Below, piece after piece: positions 43,940-50,335 of a stretch of DNA of 64,000 nt. Position 1 is the stretch's first letter. The number at the start of each line of letters is the position of its first letter. This DNA is from Dictyostelium discoideum (lineage: Eukaryota), in contig CM000150.2 of the NCBI GenBank assembly GCA_000004695.1, forward strand, positions 4,768,001 to 4,832,000, in the 5' to 3' direction. A model generated the notes under the pieces. That model was not told the origin of the DNA. It saw nothing but the letters and a program-made list of their open reading frames with translations, and ran no database searches. Both the position numbers and the translations under genes were made by a program.

Positions 43940-46900
43940 TTATCTTCTTTTGAAATAAGGTTTTCTTCCCCATTGGTTGTGTTGATCATATTCATCTGGA
44001 AGAGTTGGCGAGTTTCCGGACCTATTTTGGTTATAGTTTGGTCCCCTTTGATTACCATAAAAATTGTTATTATTATTATTATTATTGTTATTAGTATTAT
44101 TATTATTTGTATTATTAGTATTATTTATATTGCTATTTAAGTTATTGTTATTATTACTATATTTAAAGCTTGAAGGTGAATCTAATAGTTGTGGTGATTT
44201 ATTTGATGAAGGTGTTGGAGGGTTTGATTTATTGGTACCGCTAGTATTTGTTTGAGAAGTTGATGAGGAAGATGAAGTCGAAGAAGTTGAAGAAGTTGAT
44301 GGTTGTTGTGATTGTGATTGTTGTGATGGTAATGGTTCATTTCCATCCATATCATAGTCATCATTATGATAGGAAGAGAGTGGTGGCGAAGGAAAACCAT
44401 TTCTTGGGTAGTTTGGTCTTCTATCCCAACCACTTTTATCAACGTTTCTATCATATGGAATTCTATTTTTATCGTTGTTATATCTTAAACTATTATCCCA
44501 ACCACTCTTTCTGTGTGGGCTATCCCAATGATCATCTTTGAATCTTCCTCCATAACGATTTCCTCCTCCTCCTCCTCTATCGCCAGAGAATTGATCTCTG
44601 TCATTGTATGAATTCCAATTGTCACCTCTTCTATCCCAATCCCTTGGTTCTCTAACTTGATCTCTTGGATCTCCTCTTAATGGCAAGTCGCGATTATCTC
44701 TGTTTTCTCTTAATGATCCCATATCACCACTTCTTTCACGATTTAAACGATATGGTTGATCGATTGGATCCCTAAATCCACCTATTGAAGATGATAACCC
44801 ACCTTTCATTGATGGTGATTGATTTGGTGATTGTGATGGTGTATAACTATTTCTTAATTCCCTTTCATGTGGATAACCAGAGGATGATTTAGATAAAGTT
44901 TGTTGATCAGAGTGATGATGATGATGTGGAGATGGTGGTGGTGGTGGTTGACTTGGTGGTGGTGGTGGTGGTTGATTTGGTGGTGGTGGTGGAGGTTGAT
45001 CATTCAATTTATTGTTTATACTGCCACTACTATTGTTGTTGATATTGTTGCTATTATTTGTATTATTTGGTGAGTTGGTTTGGTTATTTGTATTATTTGA
45101 TTCATCATTTGGTAATGAACCTTCCTCTTCTTGATGTCCATCACTATCATCAGCTCTTCTTTCTTCTTCTTTAATACATGGTAAGTCTTTTTCCTTTTGC
45201 TTGAATTCGGCTAACCATGCTTTCTTTCCAAATTTAGATTTATTTCCTTCATCATCTGGTGGAGATGATAATGATGCCGAGATTGGGGCAGATGTTGGAG
45301 TGGTTGGTGTTTTTTCATTCATCTCTATATCTTCATTTTCATCTGATGGAGATGAATCGGTTGGTTTCTTTTTCTTTGTAGATTTTGGTGAAACATTACC
45401 ATTGCTATTAGATGTAGTTGATGTGGTTGGTGATGATTGTTGAGTAGTTGAGATTGTTGTTGTTGATAGTAATGATGGTGATGTATCAGTTGAACTACTA
45501 TTACTATTACTTGTATTATTACTATTTTTTCTATTATTTTTTTCTTTTTCTTTTTTCTCTAATTGTTCGAAATTCTGAATGATTTGTTGTAATTTTCTAT
45601 CCTCTCTAGAGGTTTTATCAGAAGGTGTATTGAAAAAAATGGAATCCATTTCCAATGATGACATTTTACCTTTTCTTTTCTTCTTTTGGGTTGGTGTCGC
45701 CATATTTGTTGTTGATGTTTCTTCTTTAATATTTTTTTCTACATTATTTTCTTCATTTTCGTTATTATTATCAAAATTATCATCATTTTCAATTATTTGT
45801 CCTTCTTGTTTTACCTGTTGCTGTTGTTGTAATTCTTGTTGTGATTCTTGTTGTTGTTGATGTTGTAATTGTTGTGGTGGTTGTTGTTGTTGTTGTTGTT
45901 GTTGTTGTTGTTGTTGTTGTTGTTGTTGTTGTTGTTGTTGTTGTTGTTGTTGTAATTGTAGTTGTTGTTGTTTTTGTTGTTGTTGTAATTCTTGTTTTAT
46001 TTGTTGTTGATATAATTCTGTGCATTCTAATGATCTTTTCTTTAATTCTGGATCTACAGTTTCACCTAACATTTCTAACATTTTAATTCCAAATGAAGCT
46101 CTTTCATTAAACCAAATCGAGACAGAACATGTTGAGGTTCCACAGGCACAATAGATCCTATTCTTTAAACATTTATAGGGATAGTCAAAATCGATAGTTA
46201 TCTCTTGATTCTTTTCTATTTGACTTAAACTAAAAATTGAAACTTTTAAATTATTTTTATTATTATTATTATTATTATTATTATTATTATTATTATTATT
46301 ATTATTATTATTATTATTATTATTATTTATATTTATATTTATATTACTAAATTGAAATTTTGAATTTGGTAAACATGATCTTCTTATAAATTTACAAACG
46401 GAACCAGATCTAGCGTCTATACAGAGATCTCTTTCCTTTGGGTTATATGTGTTTTTTAAATATGAAGTATTATTGAATGATTGATAGGTTGAATTAAACA
46501 TAAGGATTTGTGGATTGATTGTATTGAGTAAGAATCCATTTGAATCAACCCATTCATTCTTTATATCAATGATTTGATTTTTGAATATACCTGTACATTC
46601 ACCAATGAATGTATTTTCATTTTGACCTAATTTTGATAATATAATTTTTTGTGGTTGTTCTGATGAAATTTGTTGTGGTTGAGATTGTTGTTGTTGTGGT
46701 GGTTTTTGATGTTGATGTTGTTGTTCAATTGTTGTGGTTGTTGTGGTTGTAGTTGTGGTGTTATTATTATTATTGTTATTATTATTTGATGATTCTTTTT
46801 TAATAATTAAAGGTTTTGAGGTGGTATTATTATTATTACTATTATTATTTGATAATTCTTTTTTAATAAGTAAAGGTCTTGAATTTAATCTACCAAATAT

Positions 46901-49900: not shown

Positions 49901-50335
49901 TATTATACCACCATGAATTGGTGTATTTGGTTTGGATGTTAATGTTGTAGTTGGTTGTTTTGGAGAATTTAATGGTATAGATGTTGAAGTATTGTTTGAT
50001 GATATGTTATTTACTGTTGTTGTATTGATTGATGATGATGACGACGATGATGACGACGATGATGATGTTGTGGTAGTGGTGGTGGTTGTTGTTGTTGTTG
50101 ATGCAGTTACTGTTGTGTTTGTTGTAGAAGTGGTAGATGTAGGTGTCTCTGATTTAAGTGAACCAAATAAATTTGTAAAGTCCAACTGTTTAAAAAGTGT
50201 AGAAGGTGGAGGCTCTGTTTTAACTGAACTTATATCAATGCTAGTACTAGAAATTACTGGAGATTCTAATATATTCTTTGGTAATGCCCTTCTAGCTACA
50301 GATTTTCTACTACTCTTTTTATTTTCTTCACTCAT
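43940..50335 (-). CDS. Large PHD-finger / SET-domain chromatin protein, about 2100 aa. 2 exons (50335-47450 and 47368-43940) joined through an 81-bp intron.
   Basis: The upstream ORF has two PHD-type C4HC3 clusters (CICNNNIDQGLMVQCETCDKWQHSICYG...CEQCE and CTCGKKECLVGKIIQCLSCHNWSHLSCV). It ends ..KSQFI|gtaagt, and the acceptor ..aattag|GATGATTATTG continues in frame as DDYCKRKSIKQLKEVGKLCIYNL... into the downstream ORF. That ORF carries a SET-like core (...RSCLPNSKFQF...ITIDFDY) and a post-SET CACGTSTC. Low-complexity content is heavy: a 32-S run, about 50 N, H9, (EK)n, polyQ, and an R/D/G-rich C-terminus. Confidence 0.65.
47860..47958. repeat. (GAT)n on the plus strand; it encodes the 32-residue polySer run in the PHD-SET protein.
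   Basis: Perfect trinucleotide run. Confidence 0.9.
49371..49520. repeat. (GTT)n on the plus strand; it encodes an N run of about 50 residues in the PHD-SET protein.
   Basis: Perfect run of about 150 bp. Confidence 0.9.

Follow-up and report, generated by a model that had tools for sequence, protein, structure and literature searches.

The question raised by positions 43940–50335 of the 64,000-nucleotide (nt) stretch of Dictyostelium discoideum DNA analysed here (contig CM000150.2, positions 4,768,001 to 4,832,000 of the forward strand; hereafter the window, to which all coordinates refer) is whether two large open reading frames (ORFs) on the minus strand, one with PHD fingers and the other with a SET-like core, belong to the same gene, and what kind of protein such a gene would encode. 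We favour, with a probability of roughly 0.85, a single spliced gene of two exons, stcB (DDB_G0270410), encoding a chromatin protein of the Set3/MLL5/SETD5/UpSET family with a SET domain that is predicted to be non-catalytic and a putative role in tethering a histone deacetylase (HDAC).

The complete coding region of stcB spans 43940–50335 on the minus strand, from the ATG at 50333–50335 (context AAAATG) to the TAA at 43940–43942, and comprises two exons that together encode 2104 amino acids (aa). In the ORF list of the window the locus is represented by two minus-strand entries, a 972-codon ORF with an ATG start (47417–50335) and a 1086-codon ORF with a 'TTG' start (43940–47200). The sequence agrees with the initial annotation that the former contains PHD fingers together with poly-S, poly-N, H9 and (EK)n tracts and runs to KSQFI before GTAAGT. 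Exon 1 (47450–50335, minus strand; 2886 nt, 962 codons) harbors the low-complexity tracts, both PHD fingers and the N-terminal half of a conserved middle block, and ends in ...LKSNYIKSQFI with GTAAGT directly after, the G of the donor being position 47449. Upstream of the TTG the frame remains open for 56 codons, back to ...ATAATTAG (a limit also written as ...TTTTATAATTAG), where the G of the acceptor AG occupies position 47369; the chance that a frame stays open over 56 codons in sequences of the window's composition is ~0.5%. Exon 2 (43940–47368, minus strand; 3429 nt, 1142 codons plus stop) consists of the listed ORF and this upstream open frame, opens with DDYCKRKSIKQLK at its first base, 47368, and contains the remaining half of the middle block together with the SET and post-SET regions, a REDRKLQ motif and a C-terminal Arg/Asp-rich block. 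Both exon lengths are divisible by three, so that the join is in phase 0 and generates a single 2104-aa ORF with one terminal stop, as had been proposed for an 81-bp intron with its acceptor at 47369.

The intron itself (47369–47449, minus strand) is of the spliceosomal GT-AG type, 81 nt long and in phase 0, with a GC content of 7% compared with 30–31% in the exons and 24% in the window as a whole, where coding tracts of poly-Asn and poly-Gln occur. It exhibits a GTAAGT donor, a CTAAC located 27 nt from the 3' end and a TTAG acceptor, and inspection of its sequence revealed no AATAAA. Retention of the intron would append VSKIIIIIIF to exon 1 before a stop is reached, ten codons in. Seven in-frame, stop-free GT..AG pairs are present nearby, with the GTAAGT donor found only for the pair at 47449/47369; the six others were rejected, since their donors are non-consensus and their use would remove residues that are conserved in orthologs. 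No Met occurs in the exon-2 frame until 68 codons after the acceptor, and the TTG 'start' of the 1086-codon ORF is an artefact of a bacterial-code ORF rule rather than a feature of the gene. The two-exon arrangement is an ordinary eukaryotic gene structure, and a join of this kind, over a short intron rich in AT, belongs to routine annotation. ORFs that overlap stcB in other frames or on the other strand (48815–49546 on the plus strand, 45841–46086 on the plus strand, 48784–49047 on the minus strand, and similar) translate into poly-F, poly-V or poly-K, and were dismissed as genes, being mirror artefacts of the homopolymer codon repeats.

Orthologs were obtained with a PHD-to-SET query, which identified the protein of Acytostelium subglobosum (1234 aa, with PHD and SET domains), and by an exhaustive HMMER search with exon 2, which yielded full-length orthologs in Cavenderia fasciculata, Tieghemostelium lacteum and Synstelium polycarpum as well as a Physarum relative from a transcript assembly. 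Each of the four dictyostelid orthologs, and likewise the Physarum relative, is a single protein collinear with the joined stcB model. D. discoideum and Tieghemostelium share seven collinear blocks that begin at the N-terminus (RKSVARRALPKNILESP) and reach almost to the C-terminus, where both proteins end in RKPYF(N)KRR, and four blocks are held in common with Acytostelium (BLASTP); the N-terminus (RKSVARRALPKNILESP) and the C-terminus (RKPYFKRR) are conserved in the orthologs. Across the proposed junction, D. discoideum DLFSFLKSNYIKSQFI|DDYCKRKS aligns without gaps to Acytostelium DLFSFVEPLVVRNNFT|DDHCLRTQ, and all five dictyostelid species read through this site without a gap (alignment A3), with SQFI|DDYCKRK in D. 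discoideum and NNFT|DDHCLRT, EMIS|DDYCKRK, FQFV|DDYCKRN and ESFA|DDWCRRR in the others. In the transcript-derived Physarum relative, no counterpart of the conserved junction residues was recognised. The dictyostelid orthologs (980–1704 aa; C. fasciculata XP_004361179, T. lacteum KYR02506, A. subglobosum SAMD00019534_054690) are shorter than stcB because they carry fewer homopolymer tracts, and those of C. fasciculata and T. lacteum are named only 'PHD zinc finger-containing protein'.

When introns were mapped in the genomic loci, each of the four dictyostelid genomes examined showed a phase-0 GT-AG intron at the identical position, directly before DD(Y/H)C; it measures 63 nt in Tieghemostelium, 76 nt in Acytostelium, 81 nt in D. 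discoideum and 88 nt in Cavenderia. The check on intron conservation that the initial annotation had called for therefore supports the splice. D. discoideum, Acytostelium, Tieghemostelium and Cavenderia span all four major taxon groups of Dictyostelia, and because the position is kept in genera of all four groups, the stcB intron is old. Two further phase-0 introns are without counterpart in D. discoideum, namely an 87-nt intron located three codons before the stop of the Acytostelium ortholog (L001 9770–9856) and a 99-nt intron within the low-complexity N-terminal region at the 5' end of the Cavenderia ortholog (L003 4006–4104). We also observed a 120-aa gene call of Acytostelium (L001 5787–6149, minus strand) that runs antisense across the 5' end of the stcB ortholog; it has no Pfam match and is probably a spurious prediction.

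The identity of the locus follows from its neighbours. The ORF to the left (42031–43239, plus strand) matches D. discoideum AX4 DDB_G0270408 exactly and the ORF to the right (51722–53704, plus strand) matches AX4 DDB_G0270412 (mitofilin) exactly, and the DDB_G, EAL, XP and UniProt number series each leave exactly one free slot between the two. The gene at the locus is therefore DDB_G0270410, which was named stcB in a published study as a suppressor of tgrC1−, where its disruption led to a partial return of fruiting-body formation and sporulation (PMC4404348). The gene was described there as previously uncharacterised, with the PHD and SET domains unmentioned (PMC4404348). The primers of the published stcB Southern probe map uniquely to 46698–46717 in exon 2 and 47713–47736 in exon 1; the probe straddles the intron and, therefore, both pieces were treated as one gene by the authors of that study. 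Thus, the gene and its two-exon model, stcB/DDB_G0270410 on chromosome 1 of AX4, are already known. The earlier statement that the arrangement would be missed by per-ORF annotation holds for a prokaryote-style ORF track, but not for the reference genome, in which the gene is already named stcB; the underlying proposal that the two ORF pieces form one gene is borne out by the ungapped ortholog junctions, the collinearity, the shared intron and the straddling probe. From the number series, the accessions expected for stcB are XP_646781.1, EAL72555.1 and Q55BQ0. Literature searches for Q55BQ0 and for a Dictyostelium Set3/MLL5 description returned nothing specific to stcB.

Within the joined polypeptide, the PHD fingers (aa 596–639 and 646–690) are N-terminal to the SET region (aa 1201–1376), an order that is the same in all orthologs. 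PHD finger 1 (PHD1; 48419–48550, minus strand, aa 596–639) is detected by Pfam PHD_5 with 46.9 bits and by Pfam PHD with 41.7 bits (Pfam span aa 586–639). Its best match in the PDB is the PHD finger of yeast Set3 (5tdr, also 5tdw; E = 2.9e-14, 56 bits), followed by those of a HORMA-domain protein, ASH1L, PHF20 and MLL5 (4l58, E = 6.6e-9). The methyl-lysine pocket of this class of PHD finger is formed by Asp, Met and Trp, corresponding to D2584, M2588 and W2597 of ASH1L, with D128 as the Asp of MLL5 (PMC9399681). In stcB the pocket residues are retained as D603, M607 and W616, which align with the three ASH1L positions, so that PHD1 is, as judged from the alignment, of the Set3/MLL5/ASH1L type with an Asp-Met-Trp pocket. 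The PHD-like finger 2 (48266–48400, minus strand, aa 646–690), the second PF00628 stretch, follows the pattern C-x-C-x4-C-x7-C-x2-C-x4-H-x2-C-x14-C-x2-C, matches the PHD finger of PHF13 in the PDB over query residues 56–103 (E = 6.4e-6) and is conserved in the dictyostelid orthologs and in Physarum.

The SET domain and post-SET Cys cluster (46127–46654, minus strand, aa 1201–1376) contain the two motifs reported initially, RSCLPNSKF at aa 1291–1299 and CACGTSTC at aa 1369–1376. Within the SET domain, at the hairpin turn after RRSCLPN, lies a pure (AAT)23 microsatellite that encodes 23 Asn (46259–46327, minus strand). The native full-length protein gives no match to Pfam SET (PF00856) at E ≤ 1, and the isolated native domain reaches 21.2 bits, below the gathering threshold of 22.4 bits; removal of the poly-Asn insert raises the score to 35.5 bits (E = 1.4e-8). 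It is therefore the insert in the SET hairpin that keeps the native sequence below the threshold. Of the two profile matches predicted by the initial annotation, that to PHD was recovered directly and that to SET only once the poly-Asn tract had been taken out, and the lack of a SET-domain profile match, which had been set down as a sign against the SET reading, would wrongly reject that reading on the native sequence. A shorter poly-N insert is present in the same SET loop of Cavenderia fasciculata. Among the relatives, the domain passes the Pfam threshold in Acytostelium (32.3 bits) and Physarum (43.5 bits) and falls below it in Tieghemostelium (21.0), Synstelium (18.5) and Cavenderia (13.7), in keeping with the names of the Tieghemostelium and Cavenderia proteins, which refer to the PHD finger only, and the SET domain seems to be under-annotated across the whole dictyostelid family.

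A nine-sequence profile of the SET region (alignment A2) matches the SET domain of human MLL5/KMT2E (5ht6) with 107.8 bits (E = 4.6e-30), the next family being MLL1 with 66.4 bits, ~41 bits lower; with a single-sequence query, MLL5 (34.8 bits) and MLL1 (34.6 bits) are tied. An AlphaFold model of the SET region has a predicted local distance difference test (pLDDT) score of 62 and a predicted template modelling (pTM) score of 0.51. In this model the poly-Asn insert forms a disordered loop (pLDDT below 50) that connects β-strands 97–101 and 134–141. Foldseek places chains of 5ht6 at ranks 1 and 2, the top match having a target-normalised template modelling (TM) score of 0.73, and the matches ranked after them are other SET domains only. 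With PHD1 nearest to Set3 and the SET domain nearest to MLL5 by both profile and fold, the earlier assignment of a PHD-then-SET arrangement of the Set3/MLL5 type is upheld.

What sets the MLL5/SETD5/Set3/Set4/UpSET clade apart is that three cofactor motifs and a pair of active-site tyrosines have been lost; MLL5 itself has NKKI in place of XGXG, F381 in place of the Tyr, RR408–409 in place of NH, and I444 and F446 in place of the two tyrosines (PMC5094779). Structural and biochemical data show that MLL5 has neither cofactor (S-adenosylmethionine, SAM) binding nor substrate binding nor activity, and Set3 and UpSET are likewise inactive (PMC5094779). Each of these positions can be located in stcB. 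At the XGXG position, PQKI (aa 1201–1204) aligns with (N)KKI of MLL5 and (H)GRG of MLL1 and contains no Gly. The cofactor Tyr corresponds to Q1249 within NPQILMF, in the column of MLL5 F381. The NH position is occupied by R1291-R1292 in FIRRSCLPN, from which MLL5 FIRRSCTPN differs by Thr for Leu, and the RR is invariant in A2 except for HR in Cavenderia. The active-site tyrosines are replaced by I1354 and F1356 in EITIDFDY, compared with EITIAFDF in MLL5 and ELTYDYKF in MLL1. The zinc cage, defined by three C-terminal Cys and one Cys of SET-C (PMC5094779), is retained as C1369-x-C1371-x4-C1376 and the Cys of RRSC, all four being invariant in A2. Thus, all four catalytic motifs of KMT2/Set1 (XGXG, Y, NHSC and ELxYDY) are replaced in stcB, which places it outside the catalytic family. 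Judged by sequence, stcB carries each feature of the Set3/MLL5(KMT2E)/SETD5/UpSET clade that was compared and lacks those of catalytic KMT2, and its SET domain is probably inactive. Cavenderia departs from the clade signature, with FVHRSC (HR), DPYVLY and TIAYDY, and keeps tyrosines that are absent in D. discoideum; these may reflect either drift or residual function.

Based on these features, we envisage that stcB would be transcribed from right to left from the ~1.4-kb AT-rich region that it has in common with the divergent mitofilin gene, and that removal of the 81-nt phase-0 GT-AG intron would give rise to a nuclear chromatin protein of 2104 aa. PHD1, with its Asp/Met/Trp pocket, may read histone H3 di- or trimethylated at Lys4 (H3K4me2/3), and the SET domain, without the SAM-binding and catalytic motifs as in MLL5/Set3, would act as a non-catalytic structural module. 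By analogy to the Set3 complex (Set3C) of yeast and to the NCoR-TBLR1-SETD5 assembly, StcB could be the subunit that targets a deacetylase complex, of the HDAC3/Hos2-NCoR/Snt1-TBL1/Sif2 type, to chromatin that is transcribed and methylated at H3K4, where it would dampen or delay gene induction. In the published descriptions of these complexes, H3K4me2 brings yeast Set3C to 5' transcribed regions, and the NCoR-TBLR1-SETD5 assembly is mammalian (PMC6130219, PMC13385800, PMC3485120). More speculatively, disruption of stcB would abolish this repression and let post-aggregative genes be switched on in the absence of TgrB1-TgrC1 signalling; the partial bypass of the tgrC1− developmental arrest would be explained in this way. 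Taken in full, that is, with stcB as the Dictyostelium Set3/MLL5/SETD5 ortholog, a catalytically dead reader that recruits an HDAC3/NCoR-like complex and the loss of which de-represses post-aggregative genes and so bypasses the TgrB1-TgrC1 requirement, we hold this proposal tentatively, at somewhat below even odds.

Other explanations of the locus bear on its structure, on its products or on its chemistry. Two independent adjacent genes, namely one for a PHD protein ending in ...QFIVSKIIIIIIF* and one for a SET protein that begins at an internal Met, with the GT..AG pair being coincidental, would be in keeping with the read-through frame of exon 1, which stops ten codons into the spacer. However, an 81-nt spacer that lacks AATAAA has no room for a terminator and a promoter, ortholog conservation runs unbroken through the junction and the 68 Met-less codons that follow it, every ortholog is one protein with its intron at this very site, a single accession slot exists between the neighbouring genes and the stcB probe covers both pieces, which together make this arrangement highly improbable. 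The same stop after ten codons would, if the intron were regulated, let its retention produce a 972-aa PHD-only isoform beside the full-length protein, and such a truncated product would retain both PHD fingers. Yet the sequence bears no sign of such control. The intron, short and AT-rich, has consensus-like splice sites and a conserved position, and a truncated protein would retain only part of the conserved middle block, which would be split into two halves. We consider a regulated intron to be decidedly unlikely.

A working lysine methyltransferase (acting on H3 or on a non-histone substrate), possibly dependent on a partner or a modification, would leave the spliced gene as described and change only the role of its SET domain. 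In its favour, stcB still has the SET fold, the cysteines of the post-SET zinc cluster and a DFDYPY segment that includes Tyr, a Tyr is found at the 'Y' position in Acytostelium (SPYILF) and in Cavenderia (DPYVLY), the latter also having HR and TIAYDY, and activity in the clade is disputed, SETD5 being described as an H3K36 methyltransferase (PMC9982096). Set against this are the replacement of all four cofactor and catalytic signatures as in MLL5, with neither the Gly of XGXG nor the Asn-His pair present in stcB, and the inactivity of MLL5, Set3 and UpSET (PMC5094779). An active enzyme therefore appears unlikely, if less so than a regulated intron.

Several observations weigh against a spliced, non-catalytic Set3/MLL5-type stcB. 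The joined two-exon model is drawn from sequence and comparative evidence only, and the predicted catalytic inactivity, H3K4me binding and HDAC association would all be carried over from homologs. The native SET domain on its own remains below the Pfam cut-off, as described above, and the structural model of the SET region is only moderately confident (pLDDT 62). The comparison to the clade by sequence covered the MLL5 SET domain plus the Set3 and MLL5 PHD chains from the PDB. Compared with Set3 and MLL5, stcB has a second PHD finger, ~560 residues between PHD and SET, and a lineage-specific middle block. Lastly, exact, word-indexed and exhaustive representative searches of the protein collections returned no D. 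discoideum record for the locus, either joined or as one of the two pieces; this absence says nothing for or against the joined or the split model. The collections hold no D. discoideum or D. purpureum record of the stcB family, and a 170-aa query centred on the junction and aimed at transcript-derived products found no match. A profile search for named Set3, SETD5 and UpSET relatives returned only short metagenomic SET fragments.

If the proposed function of stcB is correct, a conserved chromatin repressor would be tied to development that depends on allorecognition. Such a link would have been overlooked because the (AAT)23 tract puts the SET domain below the Pfam threshold and because the orthologs are named only for their PHD fingers. 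The gene structure adds little to what is known and the Set3/MLL5 assignment is a modest addition, the family placement providing a testable hypothesis for the suppression, namely the loss of HDAC-linked repression. In addition, stcB illustrates that a poly-Asn insert of microsatellite origin can hide a folded domain from a profile search, and we suggest that such inserts be removed in homopolymer-rich genomes before a domain is called absent.

Further conserved regions are found outside the PHD and SET domains. The middle block (47129–47683, minus strand, aa 885–1042), which is split by the intron, comprises ~160 aa with ~41% identity across five dictyostelids (alignment A3), and its invariant residues include DD.C.R, C97, DN..FQKY and YM..A.E. 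It has no Pfam match and no relative in the PDB (the best match, a xylanase with E = 0.55, is noise), and a weaker version of its C-terminal half (..L.KY......R..I..G...LL.........A.E) is present in Physarum and two further relatives. The post-SET cluster is followed by a helical extension (46013–46126, minus strand), with WFNERA..GIKMLE.LG..VD in A2 and helices 176–194 and 201–218 in the model. The conserved motif SREDRKLQQIIQNFEQLEKKEKEK (45536–45610, minus strand, aa 1549–1573), with the consensus (S/T)RE(E/D/Q)RKLQ...FE.LE, has counterparts in T. lacteum (TREERKLQAIIQNYEQMERKQKEK), Physarum (SREQRKLQALVKTFEKLEHREKRK) and two further relatives, and a KKAWLAEFKQ motif is also conserved. A C-terminal Arg/Asp/Trp-rich block (44330–44848, minus strand; FRD.IDQ.YRL.RER ... 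GWDRRP..YPRNGF.SPPL) was detected by BLASTP against Acytostelium and Tieghemostelium.

The intergenic regions on either side of stcB measure ~700 and ~1390 nt, the larger being the AT-rich upstream region in common with the divergent mitofilin gene (50336–51721, ~1.39 kb). The head-to-head stcB-mitofilin pair is kept in D. discoideum, Acytostelium (L001 2262–4413) and Tieghemostelium (L002 490–2409), but not in Cavenderia. Just upstream of the ATG, at 50340–50450 (minus strand), are C/A-rich tracts that are unusual for this genome (ACAACAACAACATCATACACACC...CATACATACACATACATACA), and a CA/CACT/CT microsatellite, ACACACACACACTCACTCACTCACTCACTCTCTCACACC, is located ~550 nt upstream of the ATG at 50875–50935 (minus strand); both may be 5' untranslated region or promoter elements. 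In a newer D. discoideum assembly the genes flanking stcB have the consecutive accessions KAM9940593.1 and KAM9940592.1, which suggests that the low-complexity-rich stcB may be left unannotated there.

Among known systems, MLL5/KMT2E (paralog SETD5) is the closest to stcB in the SET domain. MLL5 also has a PHD finger upstream of SET and is the closest solved SET structure by profile and by fold, and the two proteins are alike in FIRRSCxPN, in EITI.FD with Ile and Phe in place of the catalytic tyrosines, in the loss of XGXG and in the post-SET cysteines. Unlike MLL5, stcB has very long homopolymer tracts, the (AAT)23-encoded poly-Asn within SET, and a Gln at the 'Y' position where MLL5 has Phe. 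The PHD1 of stcB is nearest to that of yeast Set3, which with Set4 shows the same succession of a PHD finger and a degenerate SET domain. The Set3 PHD finger binds H3K4me2/3 (PMC9399681), and Set3 and Set4 are orthologs of MLL5 and SETD5 (PMC5094779). Set3 is a member of a complex with Hos2, Hst1, Snt1 and Sif2, and the comparison of its sequence with stcB covered the PHD finger. Drosophila UpSET and C. elegans SET-9/SET-26, which were compared via the literature, are PHD-SET proteins of the same clade and are described as H3K4me3 readers that lack methyltransferase activity and restrain active chromatin. A trematode relative has in common the IRCxC...CQH PHD, RFIRRSC, LPFDFDF and RCACSRKAC motifs. 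The catalytic KMT2/Set1 proteins (MLL1–4, Set1) share the SET fold and the post-SET CxCx4C with stcB and are the second-best PDB family (66 bits, ~41 bits below MLL5), but they possess the GxG, Y, NHSC and TYDY motifs that are absent in stcB. The dictyostelid orthologs, by comparison, are collinear with stcB and have the same intron position, and the divergent mitofilin neighbour is common to three of four dictyostelid species.

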